From Oligoflexia bacterium (GTDB taxonomy: Bacteria; Bdellovibrionota; UBA1018), in assembly GCA_903895855.1 (NCBI GenBank), contig CAITVN010000076.1, forward strand, positions 7,124-71,123: a stretch of 64,000 nt of DNA, in the 5' to 3' direction. Below are positions 22,730 through 46,141 of the stretch, piece by piece (the first letter of the stretch is position 1; each line of letters opens with the position of its first letter). Both the position numbers and the translations under genes were made by a program. A model generated the notes under the pieces. That model was not told the origin of the DNA and did no database searches. It saw only the letters and a program-made list of their open reading frames with translations.

Positions 22730-22747
22730 AACTCCGGCGCCGGAGTT
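22730..22747. repeat. REP-like 18-nt palindrome, copy E, inside a larger imperfect palindrome
   Basis: GTGAGCAGCAACTCCGGCGCCGGAGTTGCTCAACTGACTGCTCAC (22721-22765), lying between the convergent SWIM and substrate-binding-protein genes. Confidence 0.6.
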
Positions 22748-22761
22748 GCTCAACTGACTGC

Positions 22762-27281: not shown

Positions 27282-28699
27282 GGTTTTCGCCCTTTGAACC
27301 CGTTTTACCGAGGCTTCGCGCTTTCATCAATCGAATAGCGCGGCCGGCAATCACTTTAGTCTTTGTCGCCACCTGGTTAAGTTTGACCGCTCACGAATCT
27401 ACGGCTTGGAGCTTACATTACCTCATCACTGATCAGTCGCTTACAGAATTTCAATCGCCTTCACTTAATTTGGCAGAAGTGACCGTTGTAAAGCCTTTTG
27501 ATGAGTTTCTTAAGAGCTCTCCGCAAGATCTGAAACTCGTTTTCGATCGCTTTTATGACTGGCTCGATTCGAGGCCCCTGAAACGCTACAAGAGGCAGAC
27601 CTTTGATGCCGCACACCCGACCCAAGCAGAGTTTCTCAAGGCGGCCAGACTGAATCCCAAAACACAATTGAAGCTCGTGACCCGAGTGCTGCCGAGTGAG
27701 CCGCAAAACTCCAAAGAGATACCGGGGGCGTTGCATCAGGTGGTTGGGGCTTCGAAGACTGAAAATCCTGAGTTTGAGTACCGATTTGCTGAAGTTCAAA
27801 AGAATCAAACGGTGAGTGTGCGTTCAGAATTGATTACTTTTTGTGACGAGCCAGATTGGGGAATGGATCAAGACCTTTTTCAAATTGCCGAATATGGTTA
27901 CGGAAAAATTCCTTACGGAGGTGAAACCGGCATACCGAGTCAGGCGCCTTTTCACATGCTTTTTTTGACTGAAAATTTTATTGTAAAATTTGCGGCCCCT
28001 GAGGCTCTTGAAGGAATGGGTAGAGAGCGAGTTGAACTTTTTTCAAGGCTCTCTCAGTTCGCATTTGCCCACAATGAGCGCTACTGGGGTTTTCGTTTTG
28101 CCGGTTGGGCTTTACACTACCTGCAAGACTTAGGGCAGCCTTATCACTCGAGAGCGATGCCTCACTGGACGATCACAGACTACTTAAAATTTGCGGTATC
28201 GTCAGAAAAAGAGAAAATAAAAAAAGACGCGACACAGCTCGTAAAAAACCGGCATTTTGCTTATGAAGATCTGGTGGCTCATGCGCTACAGGCAGCCTAC
28301 TTCAGCGCAGGCGAGTTTGAAAAGGCGTTGGCGGTTTCAACCCGGGCCGAGGCTAAAGATTTTTCGGTAAACCCAGGGCCTTCAGAAAAACAATCGCTTG
28401 CAGTCAGTTTGGTTGAAATCATGTCTCGCACAGCAGGAGCTCACTCGCATGTGATTGATGCCGTCTTAGTCGATACCCTAGGACAAAAATACACGAATGA
28501 CCCTGCCTATGATTTGCAGACAGATAAAGACTATCAAATCAAGACGCTGCTACCTCGCTTAGATCAGAAAAAATTGAATCATCTACTGCAAGAGACTCAG
28601 GTTGATTTTTCGCGAGTCGGCGCAATTACTAGGGCTTGGGTCGAGTCTTTGGTGAGCTTTTCGGGTGCCGCTTCATCAAATTCTCGTTCAGATAAATAG
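27260..28699 (+). CDS. secreted protein, possible zinc-dependent phospholipase C / P1-nuclease fold
   Basis: A signal-like segment ITLVFVATWLSLTAHESTA is followed by W. Later HYLQDLGQPYHS resembles the metal-binding helix of the PLC/P1 family. The start is uncertain: both candidate ATGs (27260, 27272) overlap the divergent alaS start codon at 27279-27281. Confidence 0.45.
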   Translation: MKNLMSTWFSPFEPVLPRLRAFINRIARPAITLVFVATWLSLTAHESTAWSLHYLITDQSLTEFQSPSLNLAEVTVVKPFDEFLKSSPQDLKLVFDRFYDWLDSRPLKRYKRQTFDAAHPTQAEFLKAARLNPKTQLKLVTRVLPSEPQNSKEIPGALHQVVGASKTENPEFEYRFAEVQKNQTVSVRSELITFCDEPDWGMDQDLFQIAEYGYGKIPYGGETGIPSQAPFHMLFLTENFIVKFAAPEALEGMGRERVELFSRLSQFAFAHNERYWGFRFAGWALHYLQDLGQPYHSRAMPHWTITDYLKFAVSSEKEKIKKDATQLVKNRHFAYEDLVAHALQAAYFSAGEFEKALAVSTRAEAKDFSVNPGPSEKQSLAVSLVEIMSRTAGAHSHVIDAVLVDTLGQKYTNDPAYDLQTDKDYQIKTLLPRLDQKKLNHLLQETQVDFSRVGAITRAWVESLVSFSGAASSNSRSDK

Positions 28700-28874: not shown

Positions 28875-30677
28875 ATGGCAAATTACTATACTGATTCAGC
28901 TGAATGGAAATATCATTTCAAAAATTCAATCAACTGGGATGCGATTCTACCGCTTTATTACCCTACTTTTCCGACCGCCGATGGATTTCAAAATAGAGAT
29001 GAAGTGTTGCAGTTTTTAGAAGAATTACTGACCACGACTGGTAAGTGGGCGGCTGAATCACTAGCGCCTAGATCAAAAGAACTCGACAAACAAGGTGCTG
29101 GCACGCTCTTGAATGGGGTGTTCACACCGTCAGAGGCTTTGAATAAAACCTACCAAGAAGCTAAAGAGCTCGATTTGTTTGGGCTGTGCATGGCCCCCCA
29201 CCATGGTGGCATGGGCGTTCCGACGATTGTGGGCCTTCTTGCGCTCGAGCAAATTTCAAAAACCTGCGTCTCGACCATGAGCCAACTGGGCTTTTTTACC
29301 AGCATTGCCGACATGATTGAACGATTCTGCGACAAAGATATTCAAGATAAATACATACCCATGATTCGTAACGGTGAAATCAGCGGCTGTATGTGCATGA
29401 CTGAGCCCGATGCCGGTTCAGATGTGGGTTCGTTGCGTACGACTGCAAAAAAACAGCCTGACGGGTCGTACTTAGTTAATGGCGTGAAAATTTTCATCAC
29501 CAACGGCGGCGGTGGTCTCGCCTTCGTGCTGGGTCGAATCGACGGGGCGCCAAAAGGTCTTGAAGGGTTGTCGCTGTTTTTCATAGAGCAGTGGCCCAAT
29601 GCTGATCGAAGTGCGAAGCCGAACTATTTAGTCACTAAGCTTGAAGAAAAAATGGGCATGCACGGTTCGGCAACTTGCGAACTCGTTTTTGAGAATTCAA
29701 AGGCTCGGTTAGTCGGTGGCGAGAACGAAGGCTTCAAGGTCATGCTACATTTGATGAACGAGGCCAGAATCTGTGTGGGCTTGCAAGGTCTAGCAATTAC
29801 CGAAGGCGCTCTCGCGGCTGCGAGAACTTATGCCGAAGGCCGTCAGCAGTTTGGTAAACCTTTGATGGAGTTGCCTTTGTTTAAGCGCAATTTTAACGAG
29901 TGGGAAACTGAGCTCGATGCGTTCAGAGCGCTCATGGCTGACACCTTTACTTATTTTGATATCTACACTCGCCTGGATTTGAAGAAGCGAAGAACTGATG
30001 ATTTGACGGCAGACGAAGTCAAGCTTCAGCAAAAAGCCGGAAGACGAGTGAGAAGGCGAACTCCGTTAGTAAAATACTACGGCGCCGAGATGTCGGCTAC
30101 GTTAACGCAACGAGCGATTCAAGCGCTCGGTGGTTACGGCTACATGGCTGAATATGAAGTCGAGCGTTTTCATCGCGATTGTTTCGGGCCGTTGTTATAT
30201 GAAGGCACTTCACAAATTCAAGCCCTCATGTCGATGAAAGACCTCGTGAAGTTCATGATGAAAGAACCCGCTCGCTTCATTCAAAGTATTGTGGGTAACC
30301 ACCCGTTGACGACGATTGGCGACTCTTCGGTGAAAAAAGCGCTGACGAGTTCACTTTATGAATACCGAAAGCACGTCACCATGCTCGTGGTTCGCTGCTT
30401 TAGACCTGATTTGCAGTTGAGTGAGATGAATTTCACGCAAACACTTGGCCAGCTAAAATCGATCATTCGCGGTGATTTTTGGCAAGAAGAGGGTCGATTT
30501 GATAAATTAATGACCCACGCTGAAACCATGTGCCAGGCTCTTTCATACATTGAAACGCTGAAGGTCTTGGCTAAGCACGCTGCAAAAGACAGTTCAAGAG
30601 TGGCGCTGTTTGATCGTTATCATAAGCTCATTCAACCACGTTTTGCTGCAATTTTCGCTGACTGGAAACTCGGATAG
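28875..30677 (+). CDS. acyl-CoA dehydrogenase, long form
   Basis: ISGCMCMTEPDAGSDVGS, FITNGGG, LGGYGYMAEYEVERFHRD and YEGTSQIQ. The start is placed at the ATG at 28875 (MANYYTD). Confidence 0.85.
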   Translation: MANYYTDSAEWKYHFKNSINWDAILPLYYPTFPTADGFQNRDEVLQFLEELLTTTGKWAAESLAPRSKELDKQGAGTLLNGVFTPSEALNKTYQEAKELDLFGLCMAPHHGGMGVPTIVGLLALEQISKTCVSTMSQLGFFTSIADMIERFCDKDIQDKYIPMIRNGEISGCMCMTEPDAGSDVGSLRTTAKKQPDGSYLVNGVKIFITNGGGGLAFVLGRIDGAPKGLEGLSLFFIEQWPNADRSAKPNYLVTKLEEKMGMHGSATCELVFENSKARLVGGENEGFKVMLHLMNEARICVGLQGLAITEGALAAARTYAEGRQQFGKPLMELPLFKRNFNEWETELDAFRALMADTFTYFDIYTRLDLKKRRTDDLTADEVKLQQKAGRRVRRRTPLVKYYGAEMSATLTQRAIQALGGYGYMAEYEVERFHRDCFGPLLYEGTSQIQALMSMKDLVKFMMKEPARFIQSIVGNHPLTTIGDSSVKKALTSSLYEYRKHVTMLVVRCFRPDLQLSEMNFTQTLGQLKSIIRGDFWQEEGRFDKLMTHAETMCQALSYIETLKVLAKHAAKDSSRVALFDRYHKLIQPRFAAIFADWKLG

Positions 30678-30720
30678 GAATGGGGTGCGACTGCGGTGTT
30701 CGAGAAGAGCCTGCTTTCGT

Positions 30721-30990
30721 GCGGCTCTTGCTGACCTGAGGATCAATGAAACAATGTCCGCAGACACCCTTTCTTGATCTTTTTTGGTTTTAATTGGGCT
30801 ACCAAACTCAAACTAGTTTTGAGGCCTCCCGCAAGCGTGACGCGTTCGCGCCGTAGGCGCGATGCGGGCGAGGCACGGATGCCGCGCCGAGAAAATGAGT
30901 TTGAGTTTGGTAGCCCAATTAAAACCAAAAATATCACTATGGGTGGCGAGGACTTTGTTTCATTGATCCTCAGGTCAGCAAGAGCGCCGC
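30721..30990. repeat. nested-hairpin intergenic element, copy E1
   Basis: The outer helix 30724-30754 pairs with 30955-30985 (31/31 bp). The inner helix 30780-30814 pairs with 30898-30931 (34 bp). The motifs TGTCCGCAG (30755-30763) and GGCGAGGAC (30945-30953) and the apical GCGAGGCACGGATGCCG are shared with E2 and E3. Confidence 0.85.
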
Positions 30991-30997
30991 AGTGGCC

Positions 30998-32314
30998 TTA
31001 TCGATAAGTGCTCTGGTGAAATAGGCAGTTCCAGAGGGTTTTCGCTTTGAGCGGAATATTGGGGTATTTCGGTGGCGTGAAGTCGGGGTGTTCGAAGTCA
31101 AACATATCGGCCATCGAGTTGGCGTTAGCGTCGCGCCGACTGAGCGCAGGAATATTGTACTTGTCTTCGATGAATCGCAAAATCGAGGTGTGGTCGTAGG
31201 TGGTGTGTGAGACGAAGTGGCGCTTAGCGTACGGTGAAATGACGAGAGCCGGAACTCTAAATCCGAGGCGCTCAAAGCCTTCTTGTTTGTTTTCGACGTT
31301 GGGTAAAATTTCATCGGGGGCACACGCTTTTGGCGGCGCCACGTGATCATATCCCCCGTCGCCTTCGTCGTAGCTGAGAAAAACGGCTGAGTTTTTCCAT
31401 GAAGCGCTTTTGCTGAGGGCTTTGAGGCGAGTGGCAAGTTGCCGCTGGTTAATGTCAAAGACAAACGGTGGGTGTTCTTCTCCAAAAATGCTCGAATTTT
31501 CGACAAAAACCACTTGGGCAAGTTTGTTGTGTTTTGCGTGATAGTCAAAGAGTTTGGCTGGTTTAAAGTGTTTGATGTTTTTCAAATAAAATTTTTCATA
31601 AAACTGAATGATCGAGACGTCTGAGATGTAGAATGTCCAGCTCACGCCGGCTTGAGTGAGTGATTCAAAAATGGTGGGTTCTGACCAACCGCCGTGAAAG
31701 AGATCTGAGTTGGTATTTGACGTTTGCCCTGCTGAAGTGCCCGCATAGGCGTATCGACGATTGGGTTGAGTGGCGCCCATCACTGACGCGAAGTAACGGT
31801 CACCCACTGAGAACTGATTAGCCAGAGCATACATTAAGGGGTAATCGCGTTCGTCATAGTAGCCCATCGCGCGATCACCGTTGAGTTTTGACGACGTATT
31901 TGAGATCACAAACTGGTCATTTTTTCCTAAATTGTAGGCTTCGTGTGAACCATCCCAGCCGTGATTCATGCTCTTGATGCAGTGGTTGGTGAGGTGAAAG
32001 GGTACAACGGGAGTGCCATCGGCCGCGGGGTTATACAGATCGGCCGTGATGCCATCGACTTCGTTTCCGTAGAATTCTGGTTTATTTAATTTTCCAAATA
32101 CATTATCGAAACTATGGTTTTCCATCATGAAGACGATGGTGTGTTCGATGGGGTTAGTGTGATCAGGTAGTCCGATGGGATCGTTGGGCCTGGCAAGAGA
32201 CCCTTTGGGTTGAGAGCAGTTGGGTTCTTCGGCCTGCAAACTAGAACAGCACAATAGACTCGCTGCGCTTAAGATCGATAAAAAGCTGACGGTATTTGCC
32301 TTCATGTATCCCAC
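30998..32314 (-). CDS. phosphoesterase-family protein (non-hemolytic phospholipase C / acid phosphatase type)
   Basis: 438 aa with a signal peptide. IEHTIVFMMENHSFDNVFG, SWTFYISD, LSYDEGDGGYDHV and the RVPALVISPY pattern are typical of the phosphoesterase family. Confidence 0.8.
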   Translation of the reverse strand: MGYMKANTVSFLSILSAASLLCCSSLQAEEPNCSQPKGSLARPNDPIGLPDHTNPIEHTIVFMMENHSFDNVFGKLNKPEFYGNEVDGITADLYNPAADGTPVVPFHLTNHCIKSMNHGWDGSHEAYNLGKNDQFVISNTSSKLNGDRAMGYYDERDYPLMYALANQFSVGDRYFASVMGATQPNRRYAYAGTSAGQTSNTNSDLFHGGWSEPTIFESLTQAGVSWTFYISDVSIIQFYEKFYLKNIKHFKPAKLFDYHAKHNKLAQVVFVENSSIFGEEHPPFVFDINQRQLATRLKALSKSASWKNSAVFLSYDEGDGGYDHVAPPKACAPDEILPNVENKQEGFERLGFRVPALVISPYAKRHFVSHTTYDHTSILRFIEDKYNIPALSRRDANANSMADMFDFEHPDFTPPKYPNIPLKAKTLWNCLFHQSTYR

Positions 32315-32352
32315 CCTTTGGTTTAGGATTCGGCAATAGCGGTTTGCGACAT

Positions 32353-32377
32353 AAGAAAAATTTGCCTAGTTGGCAAA
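32353..32377 (-). terminator. weak intrinsic terminator candidate
   Basis: On the minus strand, a TTTGCC-loop-GGCAAA hairpin is followed by ATTTTTCTT. It lies 37 nt downstream of the stop of the 32414-32884 gene. Confidence 0.3.
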
Positions 32378-32413
32378 AGTGCGAAGACAGTTGTGCGTCA
32401 ATCAGTGCGAACT

Positions 32414-32884
32414 TTAGAGCCCGACTCTGACTTCAAAGCCGATGAAATTTTCAGGAACTTTTGCAATTGAACCTTGAAACTCAGGACCAGGCTTTACAGG
32501 CTTTTCAATGGCCTGAAGTTCAATGCTCTTACCTGTTTTCGAGCTTTCGAGAAGAGTGATCGCCATTTTTTCGGGTTTAGTGCCCTTCAAGGTGATGACA
32601 TAAACATTGATCTGACCAGTGGCGCGGTCAACTTGAACTTCGAGTTCTTCTTCGTGGCCTTTGGCTCCGCGTTTGACGAGCCAGCCACCGTGGGGACCCA
32701 GATTTTTTGTCGCGTTGGGTTCGATCAAGGCTTTGAATGGTTTTTTCTTTTGGCTAGTGCCTTGGTTGGCCGCTGGTTGTGAAGCTTGCGGTGTTTCGGC
32801 TAGTGCCATGAGTTCACTTGACAGCAGTACTAATGATGAAGCGAGAACAATGATTGAAACCGTTACTGCATTTAAATTTTTCAT
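32414..32884 (-). CDS. hypothetical secreted protein
   Basis: 156 aa with signal peptide MKNLNAVTVSIIVLASSLVLLSSELMALA. No motif recognised. Confidence 0.6.
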   Translation of the reverse strand: MKNLNAVTVSIIVLASSLVLLSSELMALAETPQASQPAANQGTSQKKKPFKALIEPNATKNLGPHGGWLVKRGAKGHEEELEVQVDRATGQINVYVITLKGTKPEKMAITLLESSKTGKSIELQAIEKPVKPGPEFQGSIAKVPENFIGFEVRVGL

Positions 32885-33034
32885 GGCGCATCGATATTTT
32901 CTCTAAATGGCGAGAAAGACAAGAGAAAAAAATTACCGCGAAAGCCAGCTGTCCACACCAATACGGGGCGTAAAGTCGCCTCTTTCTAGAAGATCACTTG
33001 TTTCGCAGACCCTCCCACGCTAGATTTCTTCATC

Positions 33035-36000
33035 ATGCAGAATTTTCAGTCATTCACCCTCTCTCTCATCGACTACTGGACAAAACAAGGCTGTCTATGG
33101 ACCCAGCCTTACGATCACCCCATGGGTGCAGGTACGTTTCATCCCCACACGTTTTTGAAGGGCCTGGGGCCAGAACCGTGGAGAAGCGTTTACGTTCAGC
33201 CGTGTCGAAGACCCGTTGACGGGCGTTACGGTGAAAACCCTTATCGTTTTCAACACTACTATCAACTGCAGGTGTTACTCAAACCCGCACCCTCGAATAT
33301 TATCGATGTGTTTCTAAAATCTCTTGAGCACGTGGGCATTCGACTTGAAGAAAATGACATTTCATTACTTGAAGACGATTGGAAAGGCCCGACTCTCGGA
33401 GCCTGGGGGCTGGGGTGGGAAGTTCGGGCCAACGGGCAGGAAGTCACTCAGTTCACTTATTTTCAGCAGTTGGGTGGCCTTGATCTTGATGTCATTTCTG
33501 GCGAGATCACTTACGGCTTAGAGCGGCTGTACTTGTATCGTTACGGCCTAAAGAGTGCCCTTGATATTCCGTACAACGATCAGTTTACTTACGGCGATAT
33601 TTATAAACAAAATGAATTTGAGTTTTCTCATTTTAATTTCAAGCAAGCGACGGTGAGTGAACTCTTAGAAACGTTCTCTCGATCAGAAGAAAACGTGAAA
33701 CGCTTGTGTGAGCAAAATCTGGTGCTTCCGGCTTACGATTATGTTTTACAGGCATCGCATGCGTTTAATTTACTCGACGCGAGAGGTGCGATCTCGGTCG
33801 CAGAACGCCAACGCTACATTGGGCGGGTGCGTGATTGTGCGCGCCTTTGCGCCCAAGTGTACCGTGCTGAACGAGAAGCGCGTGGGTTTCCGCTGATGAA
33901 TCGGGTGGCAAGTCAGTCAGTAGTCGGGGGGGCTGCACCGATGGGTTCGGGGCTTCAGGTGTCGAGTGCGAGTTCTTCGCGCGATTGGACTGCGCCCACA
34001 GAGGTGGGGGCTAAACCCGTTGATGTTTTACTCGAGCTTGGGGTTGAAGAGATTCCGCCAGCCTTTCAGGTTGCTGCCCAAGAGCAAATTGAGTCGTCAC
34101 TAAAGGCGTGGAGAGAAAAAACGGCAAAAACCTTTGCTGGTAGCGAAGTGTTTCTATCGCAATTGCGTGCGACAAAATTTCAGGTGCTCACATCGGCAAG
34201 ACGCATCTCGCTTTTATGCGAAGGCCTACCTTGTCGCGAGCCTGATTTGAAAAAAGAAAATTGGGGGCCAGCTGAGAGAATTGCCAAGGCTGCTGATGGC
34301 AGTTTTAGTCAAGCCGCATTGGGGTTTGCAAAAAAATCAGGAATCGACCCGAGCGCGTTGCAGTTTAAATCTAAGAGTGATGGAACCTTTCTTTACTTCG
34401 AAAAAAATGAACCCGGTCGAGATTTTCCGAAACAGGTGGCCGAAGAGTTCTTCACTTGGGTTGAGGCGATTGAGTCTGGGCTAAAGATGAAGTGGTCGGT
34501 TCCTGGTTTAGCCGATTTCTTTTCTTTTGTGCGCCCCGTTCGCACAATCTGCGCGATGGTGGGTAACCAGAGGTTAGCAGTCACTCGATTTGGGGTTGAA
34601 TCCGGCAAAACCACTTTTGGGCAGCGAGTTCTCTCGCCTCAGTCGATCGAACTAAAAGGGGCTGCTGAGTATGAGCATGCCCTGACTCAAGCTGGGGTGA
34701 TGGTCGACACGAAGAAGCGTCAGGCGCTCATCTTAGATACCGCTCGTAGCCTAGCTGAATCAAAGAAAGGAATGCTCGGGGCATTTTCTGAAAAATTAGC
34801 TGAAAAGACCGCAGGACTGACCGAAAGCCCCGTCGTGTTTTTGGGCAAAATGGACTCTAAGTATTTGCGGCTTCCGGCTCGTTTGATTTCAAGTGCTTTG
34901 CGTGAGCACATGAATTATTTTTCGGTGCTAGCGCCAGATGGGCTAACCACTTTGCCTTACTATATCGGTGTGGCTGGGTATCAGTGCACGCAGTTTGAGA
35001 AGATGGTCGAAGCGACTTCGGTCGTCGTAACCGGACGGCTCGAAGATGGTGCGTTTTATTTTGACCAAGACCTTCAAACATCTGTCGAAGAATTTCATGA
35101 CCGCCTCGGAAGCCAAACGTTTCAAGCGGGAATGGGAACCCTCAAGCAAAAAGCCCAGCGGGTTTCGCTTTTGGCTTCACGTTTAGCTAAAGTTTGGCCA
35201 AGAAATGGTGCCGACTCTTCGGTAGATTTCGCAGAAATCGCCGGGCTTGCGGGGTTGTATTCAAAGGCCGATCTGAGGTCGGGTTGCGTTCAAGAGTTTC
35301 CTGACGAAATGCAAGGAGTGATGGGCGGAATTTTGATCAACCACCAAAAACCTTTTGGTGACAAGTCAGCTCGAATAGCTGAGGCAGTCTCAGAGCACTA
35401 TTCGCCCGCAGGGGCAGCCGATTCATTGCCAAAATCGCAATTAGGCAAGCTCGTTTCTTTGGCAGATAAATTAGATTCTTTGGTATTTTTGTTAGGCTCT
35501 GGAAATGAAGTGAAAGGCAATAAAGATCCTTTCGGATTACGTCGAATGGCCGTGGGTGTGGTTCGAATTCTAGGGTTGGACGGTGAGCTAGATACCGCGT
35601 CGGTTGGATTTTCTGAGCTTTCGAGCTCAGCATTGGCCGTCATTGAAGGGCAGGGTTTTTCATTAGCAAAAGACACGTTAACAAAAGTGAATGAATTTCT
35701 TTTGGGTAGGGTCAAGGCCGCCTGGAAGAACGAATTCAATCCTGGCGCTATTGAAGCGGTCTCTAAGCGAATTGAAGCGCAGTCTATTGTGGTTTCAAGA
35801 AACCTCGTTCGTTCACTATCGAAGGCGCTTGAGTCGAAAACGAGTGGTCTTGCAGAGTCGTTAACCCCGTATAAAAGGTGTGTCTCTCTGACCGATCCGA
35901 TATTGGGTCGGGCGAGCGAGTTCGTGGTTGATGCGCAATTGATTGAACAGGCAGAAGAACGAGCACTTTTTGAAGTGGTGAAGCAAGTCGAACTGCGAGC

Positions 36001-36202
36001 AGAGCAGACTGTGCGAGACTTGAAGTTTGATGAGTACTTTGCCTTGCTCGCTTCAGTAGGCGCGCCGCTTGGACTATTTTTTGATAAGGTTTTAGTGAAC
36101 CACGATGATGTGAAATTGAAAAATAACCGGTTGGCGCTTTTGCTCAAGATTAGAAAACTCTATGACCACGTGGCTGATTTCTCGAAGATTCAACTGAAGT
36201 AG
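33035..36202 (+). CDS. glyQS: glycine--tRNA ligase, fused alpha and beta subunits
   Basis: The N-terminal ~290 aa is GlyQ-like (FQSFTLSLIDYWTKQGC, YVQPCRRPVDGRYGENPYRFQHYYQLQV, TYFQQLGG). A linker of ~45 aa follows. The rest is GlyS-like (LLELGVEEIPPAF ... DPFGLRR). Total length is 1055 aa in one frame. Confidence 0.9.
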   Translation: MQNFQSFTLSLIDYWTKQGCLWTQPYDHPMGAGTFHPHTFLKGLGPEPWRSVYVQPCRRPVDGRYGENPYRFQHYYQLQVLLKPAPSNIIDVFLKSLEHVGIRLEENDISLLEDDWKGPTLGAWGLGWEVRANGQEVTQFTYFQQLGGLDLDVISGEITYGLERLYLYRYGLKSALDIPYNDQFTYGDIYKQNEFEFSHFNFKQATVSELLETFSRSEENVKRLCEQNLVLPAYDYVLQASHAFNLLDARGAISVAERQRYIGRVRDCARLCAQVYRAEREARGFPLMNRVASQSVVGGAAPMGSGLQVSSASSSRDWTAPTEVGAKPVDVLLELGVEEIPPAFQVAAQEQIESSLKAWREKTAKTFAGSEVFLSQLRATKFQVLTSARRISLLCEGLPCREPDLKKENWGPAERIAKAADGSFSQAALGFAKKSGIDPSALQFKSKSDGTFLYFEKNEPGRDFPKQVAEEFFTWVEAIESGLKMKWSVPGLADFFSFVRPVRTICAMVGNQRLAVTRFGVESGKTTFGQRVLSPQSIELKGAAEYEHALTQAGVMVDTKKRQALILDTARSLAESKKGMLGAFSEKLAEKTAGLTESPVVFLGKMDSKYLRLPARLISSALREHMNYFSVLAPDGLTTLPYYIGVAGYQCTQFEKMVEATSVVVTGRLEDGAFYFDQDLQTSVEEFHDRLGSQTFQAGMGTLKQKAQRVSLLASRLAKVWPRNGADSSVDFAEIAGLAGLYSKADLRSGCVQEFPDEMQGVMGGILINHQKPFGDKSARIAEAVSEHYSPAGAADSLPKSQLGKLVSLADKLDSLVFLLGSGNEVKGNKDPFGLRRMAVGVVRILGLDGELDTASVGFSELSSSALAVIEGQGFSLAKDTLTKVNEFLLGRVKAAWKNEFNPGAIEAVSKRIEAQSIVVSRNLVRSLSKALESKTSGLAESLTPYKRCVSLTDPILGRASEFVVDAQLIEQAEERALFEVVKQVELRAEQTVRDLKFDEYFALLASVGAPLGLFFDKVLVNHDDVKLKNNRLALLLKIRKLYDHVADFSKIQLK

Positions 36203-36209
36203 ATTTCAG

Positions 36210-36534
36210 CAACTGCAGTTGACTGAACCTAAACTAATTGAGAATATTTTCTCCGGTTTCTTTGGCCTTCGTAAAAAGACATTCCGCAGCCGCAGTATCG
36301 GCATCTCTATTTTTTAAGAGTAGACTGCAGTTATCCCCTTATTTTTACTCCTCAAACATCCTATTTTCTTGCTTTCGGCATCCTGCCTCGCAAGAGTCGC
36401 AAAAATAAGGGGATAACTGCAGTCTACTCTTAAAAAATACTCGCCGATACAAAAGCGAGGACGTCTTTTTACGAAGGCCAAAGAAACCGGGGAAAATATT
36501 CTCAACAGTAGCCAGGTTAGTTCAACTGCAGTTG
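36210..36534. repeat. nested-hairpin intergenic element, copy E2
   Basis: Helix 36240-36280 pairs with 36463-36503 (41 bp, one T:G pair). Helix 36309-36346 pairs with 36401-36438 (38/38). The apical segment is 54 nt (36347-36400). The 12-nt palindrome CAACTGCAGTTG occurs at both ends. Confidence 0.9.
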
Positions 36535-36555
36535 TAGGATAGCCTCTTTAAAGTT

Positions 36556-37770
36556 TTACTCGATTTCAAATCGCACTGATTGAATTCCGCGCTTTGCACT
36601 ACTGAGAGCCTCATCAAATGATGATCCTACTGAGATGCAAGCACCCAGACGGTTCATTGATCCGTGTTGTAGAGTGGTGAAGTGGCCTTCACTGGCAAAT
36701 AAAAATAGGCGGGTCTCAGGTGCAAATTCGGCAGAGTTGAATTGATTTTCAATTTGGGTGATTTTTCCTTCTTTGTTTGGATAGCCATACGAGATCGCTG
36801 AAAAACGGTTGTTTTTCGGGTTCACCAGGCAAGACTGATCAATCGGAAGACCGAGGGTTTTGTTGACCATCAGTTCAACCAGGTCAATGCCAAACGCAAG
36901 TTTCACAAGCGCGGGTATGAAGTCACCGGCCAAGCGGCAGTGCGTTTCGACTAGTCGGGGTCCAGAGGGAGTCAGAAAAACTTCTGAGTGTGCAGGGCCG
37001 TCAGTGACACCTAGTTCGGTCAGAACTTTCGAAATAAAGGTGAAGGTTTCGGATCTTTGAAGTTCAGAAATATTGGCAGGCATGGCGTGCCCAATTTCGA
37101 CCGCATCAGCTTGGTTTTTGTATTTCTGGGTGACCGTGATGGGGTAATGTTGGCCATCAATAGAAAAAGATTCGATGCTGTATTCGTTTCCTTCTAAAAA
37201 CTCTTCAGCAATGTAGCCGAGGCCCCCGAAAGCTTGTGAACCTTTTGAAATTTCAGTTTCTAGATCTAGAACGGCTGCTTCTAACTGTTGGGTTGAGTGA
37301 ATCTGAAAAATTTGACGGCTGCCAAGTCCCGCACGAGGTTTGACCACAATGCCCGTTGATGACTGGCTATAGAATTCGCGAATTTGGCTAACAGAGGTGA
37401 GCGTGATTGATCGGGTAGGATCAAGGCCGGCACGGCGCAGCTGATCTCGTGTCTTGTATTTATCGCTCATCAGTTCGACGGTATGGTGAGAAACATACGA
37501 TTTTAGACCCAAGTCTTTTCCGATGCGAGCTAACCATTCTTGCTTTTGGTCACAGCAAAGATCGACGGCGTCAAGCTGGTGTTCTTGATGAATCTTGATC
37601 GCCGCCGCTTTGAAATCTTCAAAAGACGACTCTTCATTGAGTGGAGTGATGTTTTTATAAAGGTGATCATCACTGTAATGGCCATAAGGCTTGAGTAGAA
37701 AAAGCTCGTGCCCCAGTTTATGAAATTTTTCGTGATTGATGGTGATTGGATTGATTGCTAATATTTTCAT
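36556..37770 (-). CDS. ATP-grasp domain protein
   Basis: VVKPRAGLGSRQIF, IAEEFLEGNEYSIESF and HSEVFLTPSGPRLVETHCRLAGD. The start is placed at the ATG at 37770 (MKILAINP), 9 nt after the stop of the upstream gene. Confidence 0.7.
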   Translation of the reverse strand: MKILAINPITINHEKFHKLGHELFLLKPYGHYSDDHLYKNITPLNEESSFEDFKAAAIKIHQEHQLDAVDLCCDQKQEWLARIGKDLGLKSYVSHHTVELMSDKYKTRDQLRRAGLDPTRSITLTSVSQIREFYSQSSTGIVVKPRAGLGSRQIFQIHSTQQLEAAVLDLETEISKGSQAFGGLGYIAEEFLEGNEYSIESFSIDGQHYPITVTQKYKNQADAVEIGHAMPANISELQRSETFTFISKVLTELGVTDGPAHSEVFLTPSGPRLVETHCRLAGDFIPALVKLAFGIDLVELMVNKTLGLPIDQSCLVNPKNNRFSAISYGYPNKEGKITQIENQFNSAEFAPETRLFLFASEGHFTTLQHGSMNRLGACISVGSSFDEALSSAKRGIQSVRFEIE

Positions 37771-37778
37771 AGGGTGGT

Positions 37779-39155
37779 TTACCAAAAAGATATCGGTTTG
37801 GCGGGATAGGTTTGAGTCAGTGCACGTTTGTGAATTTCCTGAATGTGACCAGAAAGTGAACACATGAGGTTAGTTTGGTCTAAATTGTAGTAGACAAAGC
37901 CCGGCAGGGTTGAATCCCAGAACTCGACATAACAATCGACAAAGCCCATGGTGTGTCCAATTTCGTGAGCCAGAGTGGCTTGGTTGATCTTTAGCGAATG
38001 GTCTGCATTTTTGTCGAGGGTGATCTGATTTCCACCAATGGCAGATGTTTTTGTGAGTGCACCTGGTATTGAGGTAAAATTGATTACGGCACTTTGCTTG
38101 AAGGTGTCATAAAATAGCGGGTTCACAGTGAGTGTCTCTAGTTTGTTCCAGTAAGTTGCGATGCTTCGGCTAACTGAATTTGTGAGGGTTTCTGAAACAT
38201 CTGCAAACGGAATTGTCAACAGAGTCGTGTTGTCGGCATTTATAGCAGCAGCAATGATGGGATTCTTAACTGAAATTTGAAAAAGCGATTGGTATTTTTT
38301 TTCGCCGCGCAACAGCACGGTGTGCACCCAGTTCACCAAGCCTTCAATACTCTGATTTTCGATGAGTTGTTGAATTTCGAGATCACAAACGTGTTCAGTG
38401 GTGACCCCCAGTGAACACGCATCGAAGGCTAGTTCTCGGGCATGTATCGCTGCAGGGCTGTCAAACGCAATCTGATTGATGAGGTCAGAGAACAGGTGTT
38501 GTTGTTCGGCTCTGAGTTTTAACCATGGTCTGATGTCACGGGTGGCTGCGCCCATGGCAGCCTTGATGGGGAGGTTGCTGATGAAGCGCGAGGCTTCGCT
38601 ATAGATGGCTTTGCATTGGGTCAAAAATTCTTTGGCTGTCTTTGTTGGAATTTTTACAAATTGTTGAGAGGTAAGTTTTTCGATTTCTGGAATGCTAAGT
38701 GCCATGATTGCGTTCAGTTCTGTGGGCACCGCCTTCGAGTTGAGCTGAAATCGTTGAAGGATGTCGGCCTCTACAAAAAATCTTGGATTTTCTGGCGTAA
38801 AATCATGAAAGGTAGCGGGGTCAGAGTCGGTCATTTGCTTATCGGTGGTTAGGCGGTTACTGATGGCTAGGCATCGGCTTCCGGTTTCTACTATTTCAGC
38901 GAGGATTTTTGGCTTGCTCACGGTACCCTCGCGTGCCGCCGAGTTTAGAACTGGAAAAGCTGACGCTGAGCTCAAATACGAGATTTCACTGAGGTGTGGC
39001 GTGTGAAGTGGCGCGGTCAGTGAAACTGAGACCACGGCTTCAGCTACGTCAGGGGCGGTGGGCCCACACCCGACCACAAATTCAAGCGAGGAGAGTCCGA
39101 GGAGGGTCAGACCGAGAGCGATAGAGAGAGTGTGATGAAAAGTGAAACGTCTCAT
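37779..39155 (-). CDS. lipoprotein zinc metalloprotease (HExxH)
   Basis: Lipobox FVVGCG and zincin motif LAHEIGHTMGFVDCY near the C-terminus. The start is placed at the ATG at 39155 (MRRFTFHH). Confidence 0.65.
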   Translation of the reverse strand: MRRFTFHHTLSIALGLTLLGLSSLEFVVGCGPTAPDVAEAVVSVSLTAPLHTPHLSEISYLSSASAFPVLNSAAREGTVSKPKILAEIVETGSRCLAISNRLTTDKQMTDSDPATFHDFTPENPRFFVEADILQRFQLNSKAVPTELNAIMALSIPEIEKLTSQQFVKIPTKTAKEFLTQCKAIYSEASRFISNLPIKAAMGAATRDIRPWLKLRAEQQHLFSDLINQIAFDSPAAIHARELAFDACSLGVTTEHVCDLEIQQLIENQSIEGLVNWVHTVLLRGEKKYQSLFQISVKNPIIAAAINADNTTLLTIPFADVSETLTNSVSRSIATYWNKLETLTVNPLFYDTFKQSAVINFTSIPGALTKTSAIGGNQITLDKNADHSLKINQATLAHEIGHTMGFVDCYVEFWDSTLPGFVYYNLDQTNLMCSLSGHIQEIHKRALTQTYPAKPISFW

Positions 39156-39238
39156 TCCTGGGTTCTCTATCACCGATGGCGCACTGAGTCAATTTTGAGT
39201 GATCAGTATCTCATGGAGCGTTTAACTATCGATAAATA

Positions 39239-40477
39239 CTAAGGTTTAACCTCGACACCTTCCCACCTGGCAACTACGGCTGTCGCAAGGCAGTTGCCAA
39301 ATAGGTTAACAGCCGTTCGGGCCATGTCCATGAACTCATCGACCGCAAGAATCAGGGCGATTCCTTCAAGGGGTAGTCCGAAGGTTGTCAAGGTTCCAGA
39401 CAGCACCACGATCGAAGCGCGAGGTACTGCGGCCACTCCCTTGGTCGTGAGCATTAGAGTCAGCATCATCACGATCTGAGTGCCGATTGAAAGTTCAATT
39501 CCGGCCGCCTGAGCAACGAAAACAGACGCGATGGCCAGATAGAGAGTTGAGCCGTCTAGATTGAACGAATAGCCCATGGGTAGCACGAAGCTGGTGATTC
39601 TTCGCGGAATACCCATTTTCTCTAGCGCGCTAATGGCCATGGGGTAGGCTGATTCGCTTGAGGTGGTGGCAAATGCCAAAACAATGGCACTTTTCAGGGC
39701 ACCCAAGAAACGAAACAGAGGGATTTTGAATATTTTAAATAACGGAAATAGACAAAATACCACGAATATCAGAAGTGCGGCGTACAGTGACCCGACCAAA
39801 CGAAGCAGCGGAAAAATAACTTGCCAGCCGTGCTCAGCCACACTCGCTGCCATGGCAGCGCCGACTCCTAATGGCGCAAGGGCCATGATGTATCTCGTAA
39901 ATTGAAACATGGCTTCAGCCAATGACTCGCAAAGGTGAACGATGGGGCGGGCCTTTTCACCGATCGCAAGAAGCGCGAATCCTAAGAGCGTTGCAAAAAT
40001 GACAATCTGTAAAACGTCGCCGCGTGCAATGGCGTCAACAATATTTGTCGGCAGCAGGTGTTCTATGAATCCAGACATGGTCATTTTAGTTGCGGCAGCT
40101 TTGGCGGCCGATTCGCTGAGAGCGGCGCCCTGTAGGTGAATGCCATCACCTGGTCGAAACAGATTCACCGCACCCAGTCCGACACCCAAAGCGGCAGTGG
40201 TTGCGACTTCAAAATAGATGAATGCCCTGATTCCCATGAGGCCCAACTCTTTGAAAGAACCCGAGCCAGCGATACCAGTGATGAGCGTTGAGATGATGAG
40301 CGGCGCAATAATCGATTTGATTCCGTTTAAGAAAAGCCCTCGAAATGGCTTAATTAAGCCTACCGTTTCAGGAGAAACGATGCCCCAGGTAAAGCCGCCA
40401 ATCAAGGCGATGAAGATCCATTGAGTGAGAGAAATTCTTGCAAAGAACTTGATGATCGATGTGAAAATTTGTTTCAT
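39239..40477 (-). CDS. dicarboxylate/amino acid:cation symporter (DAACS family)
   Basis: 412 aa and polytopic. The motifs SSESAYPM, LDGSTLY and the AAVPRASIVVL pattern are typical of the GltP/DctA family. Confidence 0.85.
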   Translation of the reverse strand: MKQIFTSIIKFFARISLTQWIFIALIGGFTWGIVSPETVGLIKPFRGLFLNGIKSIIAPLIISTLITGIAGSGSFKELGLMGIRAFIYFEVATTAALGVGLGAVNLFRPGDGIHLQGAALSESAAKAAATKMTMSGFIEHLLPTNIVDAIARGDVLQIVIFATLLGFALLAIGEKARPIVHLCESLAEAMFQFTRYIMALAPLGVGAAMAASVAEHGWQVIFPLLRLVGSLYAALLIFVVFCLFPLFKIFKIPLFRFLGALKSAIVLAFATTSSESAYPMAISALEKMGIPRRITSFVLPMGYSFNLDGSTLYLAIASVFVAQAAGIELSIGTQIVMMLTLMLTTKGVAAVPRASIVVLSGTLTTFGLPLEGIALILAVDEFMDMARTAVNLFGNCLATAVVARWEGVEVKP

Positions 40478-40502
40478 GATTAATCAATAGTATTGCATTA
40501 TT

Positions 40503-40979
40503 GTGCTTGTGGAAATCATTGTTTGGATACTTTACATTGCAGTGGCGCTTTTCTTGTTTTGGTTGGGTTATCGGCAGATCAAAAATATGGGTCACTCCGC
40601 CAAAAATAAGACAGCGCCCCGACTTCCAGAGAAGCCTCTGAAAACTCACAAAAGGCAGGACGGTTTGCAGTCTGACATTTTTCAAGAAGGCTCAGGCCCC
40701 GGAGCCAAGAATAAAGACATGCTGACGGTTCACTACTCAGCTTTTTTGACGAGTGGTGAAAAAGTAGATTCTTCTTACGATCGGGGTCGAAGCCTCACCT
40801 TTAAGTTGGGTTCGGGCAAAGTTATCTTTGGGTGGGATGAAGCACTGGTGGGGGCGAAGGTTGGTGAACGCCGAAAAATAACGGTGCCGCCGGAGTATGC
40901 CTACGGAAAAAAGGGAACCGAAAAAGTGCCGCCCAATGCGACGGTTATTTTTGAGGTTGAAGTTCTGCAGATTGACTAG
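40503..40979 (+). CDS. membrane-anchored FKBP-type peptidyl-prolyl isomerase
   Basis: An N-terminal TM helix is followed by an FKBP domain (VHYSAFLTSGEKVDSSYDRGRSLTFKLGSGKVIFGWDEALVGAKVGERRKITVPPEYAYG). Confidence 0.85.
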   Translation: MLVEIIVWILYIAVALFLFWLGYRQIKNMGHSAKNKTAPRLPEKPLKTHKRQDGLQSDIFQEGSGPGAKNKDMLTVHYSAFLTSGEKVDSSYDRGRSLTFKLGSGKVIFGWDEALVGAKVGERRKITVPPEYAYGKKGTEKVPPNATVIFEVEVLQID

Positions 40980-41079
40980 AGTCGGTTACCTCAATAGAAT
41001 TGTAACTATCCGAAATTAAAGATAAATTATATAGGTAACTCTTCCTAAAGATCAGCCTCGGCCATCCCGATAAGTATCA

Positions 41080-43509
41080 GTGATGAAAAATTTCGAACTC
41101 GATACGTCTGAAGGCTCGGTTACACTCAATCAGAATAGTAAGTTGCTGGTCTATGCGCTCAATGCCAACTCCCGGCTCGACCCCGACGAGATGCAACTGG
41201 TGCTTCAGGCTTTTTCGACACTCTACAAGAGCAAGTCGACTTATAAAGAGCACCCTCTTCAAAACGAGAAATTCTCTATTGTTCTTGATTTAAAGGCTGC
41301 GGGCACCTCTATTGCTCTTGAATCCATTAGCATGCTTTTGAATTCCGAACTCATTTCTGAAATCAAGAAAGTTGCGTGTGTCACGAGCGTGGTTGAAACC
41401 CATGCACTTTGGCGTCTTGGGGTCATTTCAAGCGCCGAAGCAAAGAAATTTAGAAGTTTTAGTTCGCTTGCCCGAGCGACGGCTTGGATCGCGCTAAAGA
41501 ACTTCGAGGCAAACGAATGTGGCCATTTAGTTTCAATCGTTGAACAAAAACTTTTGACGATCAGAGTCTATCGAAACGAAATTTTCGAGATTGAGTGGAA
41601 ACCGTTAAGTGATTCGGTCACTTTAGAGGTAGCCAAAGAAATTGTTCATGAATTGAAACTACTTCGGAATCGATTTCAATTTACTCATTCTCCATCGATG
41701 CTGATTATTCTGGCCGAAGGAGTTCATGTCGGCGCCGATGTGAGAAACTATTTTGCTCAGATTGATAAAGAATTTGGAGTCAAAAGAATCGCCATGGTAG
41801 TGCCTGCTCGATTCGTCTCGGTGGTTGCAAATGCCATTCAATATTTCACACGCACTTCGGTCAAAACCCGAATCTATGCTAATCGGTTGTCGGCCAAAAA
41901 ATGGCTTGATAGAGCCGCCCACTCTGAAGATAATCGATCGGTAGAAGTCGATGATGAAAGCCTCGAATTGTGGGAAAAAACCACAAGAAACGTCAATGCG
42001 TTCGCGCATCACGTTTCAAATTTTCAGCTCTTTGTTCCTACCGCTATCGGGTTAACAGCGGTCTTGGTCGGTCTCCCGATTCCGTTCGCTTTGTTTGGTG
42101 ATCATGCATTGACTGCGATTGAATCGAGAGGGCTCGCTTATCTATTTTTGATCGCAACGTCTCTGGCAGTCGTGGCCATTTTTCGATACCAGGGCAATCA
42201 GCAGAGGCTGAAAAAATCAATTGATCAGTGGCGAAGAGATTCTCTGTTTAAGTTTGAAAAAGTCATCAAGGTTCTTGGACAATTCACCGCCGGAAACTTT
42301 TCAATGGACGAGTTGGTTGATGGGACCGAGAAAGCGGCAAAAATTCGAGATGAATACGACCAAATATTGCTGCATGCGAGGGTTCTAGGTTCAGAGTTGA
42401 GGCACTCGACCGTGAGTTCAGACTATTTCAAATCCGTGACTGACTCGCTACCTGAATCTTTGATTATTCTCGATAATACGTTTAGAATTTCACACCTCAA
42501 CGAAACAGCTCTAGATATTATTGGTATGTCACGCATTGATTTGGTTCGAAAAGAGGCGACCCTACTGTTTAGAAACCTTTCGAAGGGCGACTTGATCGAC
42601 CGGCTCGAAAAACAAGGTGAGGCTTTTGAGTGCGAGCTCAATTCGATGACTGAAAACTTTGTGCCTGTGATGGTTCGTGCTTCGCCTTTACAAGTCGATG
42701 GAGTGCATCACGGATTTTTGATTGTGGCTTCAGATTTACGTGAGCAGAAAGAGCGCGAAAAAGAGCGCGAAAAACTCAATGAAAAACTTTATCACACGGG
42801 CAAGCTCGCGTCGCTGGGCACCATTTCAGTTGGAATTGCACACGAGTTGAATAATCCACTTGCCGTCATTACCACCGCCGAGTCGGTTTTGCGAAAATCA
42901 CTCAAAGAACCTCAAGATTTGAAATTGCTCGGCATGATTCAAAAATCTGCTGACCGTCTTAAAAAGATCACCACTCACATGCGTGTTTTCGGAAGAAACG
43001 ACTCTTCGATGGAGCGTGAGGTGGTGACGATTCGTAAAGTGATCGACGATGCGATGATTTTCTTAGAAACACAGCTGCGAAATCGCAGCGTCAAAATTGA
43101 ACTCACCGTTCCTGAAAATCTTTGGGTGAACGTGAATTCAACCAGCATGGAAAGTGTTTTTCAGAACCTATTGTCAAATTCACGAGATGCGTTTGAAGAC
43201 TTGAAAGATGAGCGACCTCGACTGATTAAGATCTTTGCCGAAGAGGCTGCAGGGTTTGTGCAGATTAGTTACACTGATAATGCAGGTGGTATGCCTGAGG
43301 CGGTGAAGGAAAAGATGATGGATCCTTTCTTTACGACCAAACCGAAGGGCAAAGGAACAGGCCTTGGTATGTCGATTATCTATGGCACGGTTTCTAATCA
43401 CCAGGGCATGGTGACGATGGATTCAAGAGAAGGCGAAGGGGTGCAGTTTACGATTTTATTGCCGGCCGCCGACCAGACAGCGCTTCAAGAAGAAGATAAG
43501 GCGAGCTAA
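41080..43509 (+). CDS. sensor histidine kinase with PAS domain and long N-terminal region
   Basis: A PAS-like segment ([24 protein letters not shown]) is followed by the HisKA H-box [10 protein letters not shown]. HATPase motifs [10 protein letters not shown] and GTGLGMSI are present, with two TM helices mid-protein. Confidence 0.85.
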
Positions 43510-43955
43510 GTAGCTTCAAGCCCCGGATTCATGACGCGAGTGTAGAGCTCTACCATCTCGATCGTTTCGACAGCACCAATGTAGTCTGGCAAATCAGCAA
43601 AAAGGTGTTTCTCGTCTGGGTGAAAGGGCCAAGAAACCTGACCTGATGGCAAATTAACGACCACTATTGAGTCATCGGTCTTACCTACAGAGTAGCCCGA
43701 CTTTTCTGCAAGTTTGGCAATGAGGCTGGTGCAAGAATCTCGCTCTACCATCAGCGCGTCTTTGACTGCGAGCAACCTAGAATTTTCGCGAGCAAAAAGC
43801 TCGAGATTTTCTTCAAGAATTTTCAATTTTTGTTCAACGACGCGAGTATATTGCGAAGTTTCGAGTTGCAGCCGGTCGACCTCAGTCACCAGTTTTGCGA
43901 CTTCTTCGTGCGTGAACTGCCCTTTTACCTGCTCAACTTGATCGTTACCCATCAT
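43506..43955 (-). CDS. hypothetical coiled-coil protein
   Basis: 149-aa ORF with a coiled-coil N-terminal half. No motif recognised. The stop overlaps the kinase stop (convergent genes). Confidence 0.5.
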   Translation of the reverse strand: MMGNDQVEQVKGQFTHEEVAKLVTEVDRLQLETSQYTRVVEQKLKILEENLELFARENSRLLAVKDALMVERDSCTSLIAKLAEKSGYSVGKTDDSIVVVNLPSGQVSWPFHPDEKHLFADLPDYIGAVETIEMVELYTRVMNPGLEAT

Positions 43956-44131
43956 TGTTCAATTGTACGATTGATCCAATTCAGATGTCGAGGACTCTCA
44001 GGACTCAAAACTCACTTTCCCTGATCGCTGGCTAGGCAAAATGTGCCAAAAACCTTGCCGTACTCGGAATACGTCAAAAGAACCGTCAAAAAGTTTGCGA
44101 CAAACCCCCCTTTTTCTGGCAGAACCAACGC

Positions 44132-45760: not shown

Positions 45761-45802
45761 GACTCTTGAGTGATAACCTCGCATGCCCAATTGATTCTAA
45801 TT

Positions 45803-46087
45803 GCTGATTATTGAGTTTTTTCAGGCCGTCTAGAATCTGTGCAACCAAGACGTCCTCGCCCTTATTTTAGGGTTTATTTTTTAGGAGGAAAGCAAAGCGG
45901 TTCATTCTTTTTTTGTGACTCTTGCGAGGCAGGATGCCGAAAGCAAGAAAACAAGATGTTTGAGGAACAAAAAAAGAATGAACCGCTTTGCTTTCCTCTT
46001 AAAAAATACAATCACCGAAATAAAGGGCTGCGGAATGTCTTTGTTGCACAGATTCTAGACGGCCTGAAGAAACTCAATAATGAGCAG
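45803..46087. repeat. nested-hairpin intergenic element, copy E3 (inverted relative to E2)
   Basis: Helix 45807-45845 pairs with 46043-46081 (39 bp, one T:G pair). Helix 45885-45914 pairs with 45969-45998 (30/30). The apical 54 nt (45915-45968) match the reverse complement of the E2 apex at about 49/54 positions. Confidence 0.9.
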
Positions 46088-46141
46088 GTGATGACCAGTG
46101 CATAGGAAGTTAATCCACCAGACGAAAGGTAACTGAAAAAA

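Follow-up and report, generated by a model that had tools for sequence, protein, structure and literature searches.

Three nested intergenic palindromes with a conserved junction, related apexes and unrelated complementary arms in a relative of Silvanigrellaceae

The element E2 is a nested palindrome in a 64-kb stretch of DNA (the window) from an uncultured relative of Silvanigrellaceae (Bdellovibrionota; Silvanigrellales-like), and it belongs, together with E1 and E3 in the same window, to a small repeat family of unusual design. All three elements are intergenic, stand at gene 3' ends, show the same nested architecture and carry conserved blocks of sequence, while their long arms are unrelated from copy to copy and still complementary within each copy. 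The apex of E1 is flipped, and the libraries searched hold no such element. E1-E3 are dispersed palindromic intergenic repeats with an inverted pattern of conservation: core islands are conserved, and arms are free. The explanation we tentatively prefer is that they represent a lineage-specific, modular, rod-shaped palindromic repeat working at the DNA level, in which the junction and the apex would be recognised and the arms would be sequence-free spacers kept by hairpin-templated copying.

E2 occupies the gap of 353 nucleotides (nt) between the stop of glyQS (36202) and the end of an ATP-grasp gene (36556). Its coordinates and pairings, and the near-complete filling of this gap, are as the initial annotation had described them. 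The element has outer arms of 43 nt (98% complementary, the lone mismatch being T·G at 36252) and inner arms of 46 nt (36308-36353 / 36394-36439, 93% complementary) that contain a 39-bp core, 36308-36346 / 36401-36439, without mismatch. Read along the + strand, the terminal helix is followed by the variable outer arm, AAAGAC, ATTCCGCAGCC, the middle helix, TATTTTTTAAGAG, a 21-bp core, T5 and the apex. The second half mirrors the first, and GCGAGGAC stands opposite the junction. The parts of E2 are as follows.

36210-36534, + strand: E2, whole nested palindrome; reference orientation, with the junction-left motif on the + strand
36210-36230: terminal imperfect helix, left; holds the 12-nt palindrome CAACTGCAGTTG (36210-36221); partner 36514-36534
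36238-36280: outer arm, left; variable at 36238-36274, conserved clamp AAAGAC at 36275-36280; partner 36463-36505
36281-36291, + strand: junction, left strand, ATTCCGCAGCC; its core TCCGCAG (36283-36289) is kept in all three elements
36295-36302 / 36443-36450: middle helix, in which GTATCGGC pairs with GCCGATAC; sequence varies between copies
36308-36346: inner arm, left; clamp TATTTTTTAAGAG (36308-36320), variable 21-nt core (36321-36341), T-run (36342-36346)
36347-36400, + strand: apex (54 nt), with the mini-hairpin CTTGC-TTTC-GGCA-TCC-TGCC-TC-GCAAG at 36368-36394
36401-36439: inner arm, right; perfect partner of 36308-36346
36455-36462, + strand: junction, right strand, GCGAGGAC, kept in all three elements and followed by the clamp GTCTTT
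36463-36505: outer arm, right; partner of 36238-36280
36514-36534: terminal imperfect helix, right; CAACTGCAGTTG at 36523-36534

E3 repeats this architecture in inverted orientation, and E1 is a divergent member, as listed here.

45802-46086, - strand: E3; outer arms 45802-45851 / 46037-46086, inner arms 45875-45921 / 45962-46008
45921-45947: E3 apex hairpin
46042->46026 and 45859->45847: E3 motifs AAAGACATTCCGCAGCC and GCGAGGACGTCTT, respectively
30724-30985, + strand: E1; outer arms 30724-30759 / 30950-30985, inner arms 30781-30820 / 30892-30931
30757-30763 and 30946-30953: E1 junction, TCCGCAG and GCGAGGAC, respectively
30821-30891: E1 GC-rich apex, holding GCGAGGCACGGATGCCG (30868-30884), the E2 apex motif on the opposite strand

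The 64 kb contain exactly six pairs of inverted repeats of at least 25 nt, two each at E1, E2 and E3. When the left half of an element is aligned to the reverse complement of its right half, each turns out to be a single long quasi-palindrome in which asymmetries are few. In the junction, TCCGCAG stands opposite GCGAGGA: three base pairs are followed by a G·A mismatch, then by C:G, a bulged A and G:C; this asymmetry is kept in all three copies, divergent E1 included. AAAGACATTCCGCAGCC, GCGAGGACGTCTT and the 27-nt apex hairpin each have exactly two occurrences in the window (0-0.2 would be expected), one in E2 and one, inverted, in E3. E2 and E3 have exact common blocks of 17, 13, 14 and 13 nt, plus a 57-nt apex that is 95% identical, and their conserved blocks are ~98% identical, base-paired AT-rich clamps included. 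The clamps are AAAGAC/GTCTTT, TATTTTTTAAGAG/CTCTTAAAAAATA and T5/A5 beside the apex. The initial annotation had spoken of a three-member family with motifs in conserved order, which the common nested architecture and junction bear out; its description of conserved loops and variable helices fits the unpaired motifs and leaves out the paired clamps, which are conserved too.

The mini-hairpin GGCA-(C)GGA-TGCC in the apex is common to the family; apart from it and the junction, no asymmetry is conserved. Between the apexes of E1 and E2, the sole significant similarity is GCGAGGCA(C)GGATGCCG, and its strand, with the junction motifs as reference, is the opposite one in E1 (local score 28 vs. 12.3±2.3 in shuffles, reached in 0 of 2000), the orientation of the junction being unchanged. 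Hairpin loops invert by intrastrand template switching or stem recombination, as in the minute inversions of chloroplast hairpins, and we take the flipped apex of E1 to reflect hairpin dynamics at the DNA level. For DNA in duplex or cruciform form the flip makes no difference, but for a single RNA it is awkward.

The variable outer, middle and inner segments of E1-E3 resemble one another no more than shuffled sequences do (p 0.18-0.98; for the outer arms 0.18-0.75). Pairing is nevertheless kept at 190 of 192 positions (99%) over the three elements, so that the claim of unrelated and yet paired long helices holds. Counted on ungapped blocks anchored at the clamps (a MAFFT alignment placed gaps in the arms), 49 of 64 columns are paired in all three elements with changes on both sides, and sliding the partner by 1-3 nt reduces this number to 0-9. 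With three copies, such covariation cannot separate selection from palindrome maintenance, as hairpin-templated copying predicts the same counts. The inner variable cores are of near-constant length (21 bp in E2, 20 bp in E3), the outer arms range from 25 to 44 bp, and the boundaries between frame and insert are sharp, identical blocks abutting unrelated sequence. A 14-nt unpaired stretch of the apex differs between E2 and E3 by just two transitions, while the neighbouring arms are random relative to each other; the arms are therefore not accounted for by ordinary point divergence since a recent common ancestor. Judged from the sequences, this implies that the arms have either been replaced or have been evolving by a much faster hairpin-specific process. 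Since the blocks are ~98% identical and the adjacent arms look random, replacement appears more plausible to us than slow divergence.

Each element folds as a single rod, and none of 100 shuffles folds as well. For E2, RNAfold gives -190.7 kcal/mol (z -23.8) on the + strand and -202.6 kcal/mol (z -26.1) on the - strand, so that folding is strong on each; with DNA parameters the value is -120.4 kcal/mol (z -22.5). E3 reaches -176.9 kcal/mol (z -21.9) and E1 -189.8 kcal/mol (z -15.4). Folding is equally good on the two strands. With lengths of 38-43 bp, the helices are perfect or nearly so, and this length together with the scarcity of G·U pairs is atypical of selected RNAs. Mismatches in the arms, read on the + strand, comprise three G·T and three non-wobble cases (G·G, C·T, T·T), with no A·C. 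A terminator scan detected nothing beyond small alternative hairpins, which lie in the middle part of E2 (-) and E3 (+): at 36440-36459 (-) and 45858-45873 (+) the variable middle region may form a small hairpin followed by TATTTTTT, which is terminator-like and falls on the same element-relative strand in E2 and E3, the E1 equivalent being weak.

A DNA-level reading is favoured because the strands fold equally, the mismatches are not dominated by wobble pairs, the helices are near-perfect, E3 is inverted and the apex of E1 is flipped. The initial annotation had suggested selection on a folded RNA or single-stranded DNA structure; for RNA the same features (equal strands, near-perfect helices with non-wobble mismatches, flipped E1, inverted E3) leave the case unestablished, and a DNA-level palindrome fits at least as well. 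The active form would be a cruciform or extruded hairpin, or else a hairpin that arises while the DNA is transiently single-stranded. A structure-specific protein for DNA binding or recombination, encoded outside the window, would recognise the asymmetric junction and the apex together with the base pairs that close them, in a manner analogous to the recognition of extrahelical bases in integron attC sites or of the bulged hairpins bound by IS200/RAYT Y1 transposases. The AT-rich clamps bracket the variable inner core, and the long arms would be spacer helices whose sequence does not matter. Intrastrand template switching, as opposed to selected point substitution, would keep the arms complementary and exchange their sequences wholesale; the flipped apex of E1 would have arisen through this hairpin chemistry as well. 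Any mobility of the elements would be conjectural at this stage.

Several points weigh against this explanation. Three copies, all from one strain, make up the family sample, and copy number, mobility and arm turnover cannot be measured from it; in further samples of this organism the contigs either are identical or stop at the elements, and so carry no information on variation. A Pfam scan of the ~40 window proteins, which are ordinary chromosomal genes, detected no transposase, RAYT, integrase, reverse transcriptase or cas gene, and thus no candidate cognate enzyme in the 64 kb. All three elements stand directly 3' of a + strand gene (acyl-CoA dehydrogenase for E1, GlyQS for E2, ABC-F for E3), and the transition mismatches of the arms are all G·T on the + strand; a reading at the RNA level predicts both. 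Long perfect palindromes are normally unstable in bacteria, and the persistence of these hints at a host benefit that the preferred explanation does not name. Finally, the motif scans described below were strict (exact pattern, fixed gap range), perhaps too strict, so that the absence of the elements elsewhere is weak evidence.

The main rival, possible in our view though doubtful, is a structured RNA of the 3' untranslated region: read-through transcription from the upstream gene would produce a rod of ~300 nt that might protect or stabilise the 3' end of the mRNA, serve as an RNase III substrate, or offer its loops to an RNA-binding protein or act as a protein sponge. The position immediately downstream of + strand genes, the exclusively G·T (G·U) transition mismatches on that strand, the fold z-scores of -15 to -26 and the double-sided changes at 49 of 64 helix positions all agree with it. 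So does the exposure, by the apex hairpin on E2 (-), E3 (+) and E1 (+), of GGA along with purine-rich internal loops (GA/GAAA); the hairpin with its GGA loop may resemble CsrA/RsmA sites. However, relative to the upstream + strand gene the motifs lie on opposite strands in E2 and E3, even though the sole gene upstream of E3 is on the + strand and transcription there should be of that strand alone, and the E1 apex is flipped. Perfect helices of 38-43 bp with few G·U pairs, the lack of intrinsic-terminator geometry and of an Rfam family, and a sample of three also speak against it. As for the G·T excess, the + strand of the window is the G-rich strand (a leading-strand-like GC skew), and C-to-T mutation bias on such a strand would yield the same excess.

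Besides this, the apex mini-hairpin shows GGA in its loop (GGCA-GGA-UGCC or GGCA-CGGA-UGCC) at 36377-36387 (-), 45928-45938 (+) and 30872-30883 (+), presumably a likeness to the binding hairpins of CsrA/RsmA. Small open reading frames (ORFs) inside the elements were inspected; those of E2 are not conserved in E3. Of the window's 15 CTGCAG (PstI-type) sites, four fall within E2 (36213, 36325, 36417 and 36526), and the E2 inner core and terminal palindrome have ACTGCAGTT in common; the idea that inner arms serve as guides to their flanks fails as a rule, since E1 and E3 have no such relation between inner and terminal sequence.

It is unlikely that E1-E3 are ordinary long hairpins serving as bidirectional terminators or insulators, with shared motifs inherited through local duplication. 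Two of the three elements do lie between convergent genes, and other long perfect hairpins or palindromes occur at gene ends in the window (59198-59256 and 22727-22750). The geometry, however, is not that of an intrinsic terminator, a G+C-rich hairpin with a U-tract: T-runs precede the inner helix and A-runs come after it on both strands, which is the wrong order, and the outer helix has no T-tract after it. Local duplication should leave similar arms, whereas the arms are unrelated next to blocks that are ~98% identical, and the asymmetric junction is conserved even in divergent E1.

A bolder idea, which we regard as something of a long shot, is a programmable hairpin scaffold: a frame of junction, AT clamps and apex would hold replaceable double-stranded inserts (the 20-21-bp core and the longer outer arm), which a dedicated hairpin-templated mechanism would write and which would be read as processed small RNAs or as structure-specific sites of recombination. 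This would be an attC-like or short-hairpin-RNA-like system without a described counterpart in bacteria.

That the elements are classical miniature inverted-repeat transposable elements (MITEs), REPINs or integron attC sites is very unlikely. They are palindromic, intergenic and multi-copy, and E2 is flanked by a 12-nt direct repeat; on the other side, termini and arms are not conserved, E1 and E3 lack a flanking duplication, the window is without RAYT, transposase or integrase, the ends have no attC R-box (GTTRRRY), and the elements are two to five times the size of REPINs or attC sites.

Still less probable is the view, raised in the initial annotation, of the arms as exchangeable cargo, according to which the inner cores (20-21 bp) and outer arms (25-44 bp) would consist of acquired sequence or of guides, set in a conserved hairpin frame, be it as a hairpin-RNA guide processed by RNase III or as a palindromic memory of foreign DNA. 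The sharp boundaries of frame and insert and the near-constant length of the inner cores accord with it. No positive support was obtained: the arms have no counterpart in the window, searches of phages and plasmids by BLAST returned only chance matches (E≥0.08), and a search of IMG/VR with exact 20-mers gave no match. The outer-arm length also varies, no effector gene is nearby, and we know of no other case in which a guide is entirely buried in a perfect duplex.

An assembly artefact or a chance palindrome is hardly credible: assemblers can create palindromes and some contigs of other assemblies end at the edge of E1, as real long palindromes would also be expected to cause, but independent assemblies of the same strain carry the identical sequence (18,150 nt at 99.99%; 12,900 nt at 100%) where their contigs do not break at the elements, three loci have exact motifs of 13-57 nt in common against 0-0.2 expected, and 0 of 100 shuffles fold as well.

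Searches for described relatives gave no family assignment. Rfam 15 produced no match at gathering thresholds over the whole window, in agreement with the initial annotation, which had recognised no described RNA. In E-value mode (relaxed searches of 36150-36600 and 30600-46200, E up to 10 and 1) only models of microRNA precursors, small nucleolar RNAs and small RNAs appeared, at 13-90 bits vs. thresholds of 70-245. Genomes and metagenomes were scanned with the exact IUPAC pattern TCCGCAGMC-N-GCGAGGACKTYKTT, N being 152-182 in the genome scan and 155-185 in the others. It matched 37 times in GTDB species genomes, 33 times in JGI metagenomes and not at all in IMG/VR. The GTDB and JGI matches were rejected as chance: most are G+C-rich (at least 0.5, up to 0.75), and none is a rod at the G+C content of the elements. 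An apex pattern had six matches in IMG/VR, all by chance, and a looser pattern was saturated by chance matches. Five loci of relatives (L199, L208, L209, L210 and L211; ~97 kb) are not syntenic with the window and are free of long inverted repeats, and E-family motifs were not found in L199, L208 and L209. As far as tested, the family is restricted to the host lineage. The literature search returned no description of such elements, and their layout, shared signature motifs with unrelated paired arms, matches no described repeat or RNA family.

The neighbours of E1-E3 (acyl-CoA dehydrogenase, phosphoesterase, glyQS, ATP-grasp and ABC-F genes) are of mixed orientation. Those flanking E2 are the following.

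33035-36202, + strand: fused GlyQS, 1055 aa
36556-37863, - strand: ATP-grasp gene

The closest relative of the window's GlyQS, among 5.8 billion proteins, is only 62% identical; a fused alpha-beta glycyl-tRNA synthetase is typical of the Silvanigrellales-like clade. Elsewhere in the window, 51700-64000 holds a multihaem cytochrome cluster with an NrfD-like subunit, and a 4Fe-4S protein is encoded just beyond the window end (locus L201); the cluster suggests respiratory or extracellular electron transfer. A pair of Fic and helix-turn-helix genes occupies 15872-16911, and a glyoxalase/RNA-ligase fusion 14547-15830. Two independent assemblies begin a contig at the same position, ~28053, inside a 479-aa ORF (27260-28699) that carries no Pfam domain; neither a repeat nor a palindrome can be seen there, and the position is possibly a strain-variable point.

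Other repeats also occur in the window. A second, REP-like family consists of the 20-nt perfect palindrome CAACTCCGGCGCCGGAGTTG, present in five copies with 0-3 mismatches against 0.01 expected.

2625-2644: copy of CAACTCCGGCGCCGGAGTTG
6649-6668: copy of CAACTCCGGCGCCGGAGTTG
17146-17165: copy of CAACTCCGGCGCCGGAGTTG
18908-18927: copy of CAACTCCGGCGCCGGAGTTG
22729-22748: copy of CAACTCCGGCGCCGGAGTTG

An extra CCGGAGT is often found near these copies, and some have variable flanking inverted repeats. One copy lies within an ORF for a McrA-like HNH endonuclease (6280-7461, - strand), flanked by perfect hexamer arrays, GGTTGA x10.5 and CGTTGG x8.7 (6536-6598 and 6696-6747), and a perfect octamer array, CCGCACGA x8.4, occupies 7587-7653 in the intergenic region upstream of this ORF. 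The arrangement is like that of a contingency locus. A contig of another assembly ends exactly at the palindrome in the HNH ORF. Paralogues of the ORF were sought and none was usable, the best homologue being 35% identical. The class CAACT-N(0-20)-AGTTG has nine matches in the window vs. 1.6 expected, both E2 terminal palindromes among them. A solitary perfect 21-bp hairpin with a 17-nt loop (59198-59256), which has the recA terminator on one side and the start of an AAA_14 ATPase gene on the other, is without E-family motifs.

Among known systems, the classes that can be set aside most readily are those that differ in basic layout. Unlike those of a CRISPR array, the repeats of E1-E3 are inverted and nested, each locus has a single unit, and cas genes are absent from the window; the Pfam scan likewise gave no reverse transcriptase domain of the kind expected for a retron msr-msd. 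Long hairpin RNAs such as microRNA precursors and 6S RNA are rod-like as well. The best match to a microRNA-precursor model (plant/animal) scored 90.5 bits vs. a gathering score of 245 and reflects a generic long hairpin, and the relaxed searches of the two regions given above returned no match to 6S RNA. The ssoA-type origins of rolling-circle plasmids are long (150-300 nt) imperfect hairpins with poorly conserved stems that work only as folded single-stranded DNA and have conserved unpaired motifs, RSB and CS-6. They are, however, plasmid-borne, single-copy, orientation-dependent and found in Firmicutes, whereas E1-E3 are three chromosomal copies in both orientations.

The ERIC/IRU, Correia, RUP and BOX repeats come closer, being imperfect palindromes of 100-300 nt in transcribed intergenic regions, some of them modular (BOX, BIME). 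Their sequence is conserved along the unit or at terminal inverted repeats, and many have target-site duplications, whereas E1-E3 conserve only internal islands. The initial annotation had set the elements apart from an ordinary MITE, and rightly so: terminal inverted repeats are not conserved between copies, the outer arms being at shuffle level, and only E2 has a flanking 12-mer, itself a palindrome, with none at E1 or E3. REP, REPIN and BIME repeats are intergenic, often at gene 3' ends, hairpin-forming and multi-copy, and the imperfections of their hairpins (bulges, tags) are determinants of protein recognition, which resembles our proposal for E1-E3. E2 is also REP-like in that two small palindromes of the CAACT...AGTTG class flank it. 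A REPIN, however, conserves its arms (the REPs, of 20-40 nt) and varies its loop or spacer, the reverse of what is seen here; it has ~100 nt and one helix, against 260-325 nt and three stacked helices, and the GTAG/CGTC tag of REP is not conserved in E1.

The attC sites, e.g., the repeats of Vibrio cholerae, are imperfect palindromes too. They are recognised as folded single strands, and their structure and a few asymmetric or extrahelical bases are kept, with short conserved boxes at the helix ends, while the stem sequence is free. Sites of this kind have 57-141 nt, carry R/L boxes (RYYYAAC...GTTRRRY), reside beside intI and flank promoterless cassettes in one orientation. At E1-E3, inspection of the palindrome ends revealed no R''/R' boxes: those of E2 read CAGCAAC... 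and ...GTTAGTT / GTTGTAG, without consensus and with nothing in common with E1 or E3. The neighbours are housekeeping genes such as glyQS, with no adjacent integrase and no array of co-oriented cassettes.

If transcribed, E1-E3 would be unusually long perfect double-stranded RNA hairpins for a bacterium; if their arms truly turn over by hairpin-templated copying, they would be a natural record of that mutational process. In layout, our comparison places the elements closest to attC sites or RAYT-bound REP hairpins, yet they fail the defining features of both. REP, REPIN, ERIC and MITE families are defined by conserved arms, and a family with free arms, whose conservation is confined to asymmetric junctions and an apex, would suggest that what is recognised is shape together with a few unpaired bases. 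This mode has so far been documented for attC and IS200/RAYT hairpins, and here it would be met in a larger, nested form in a little-studied Silvanigrellales-like group of Bdellovibrionota.

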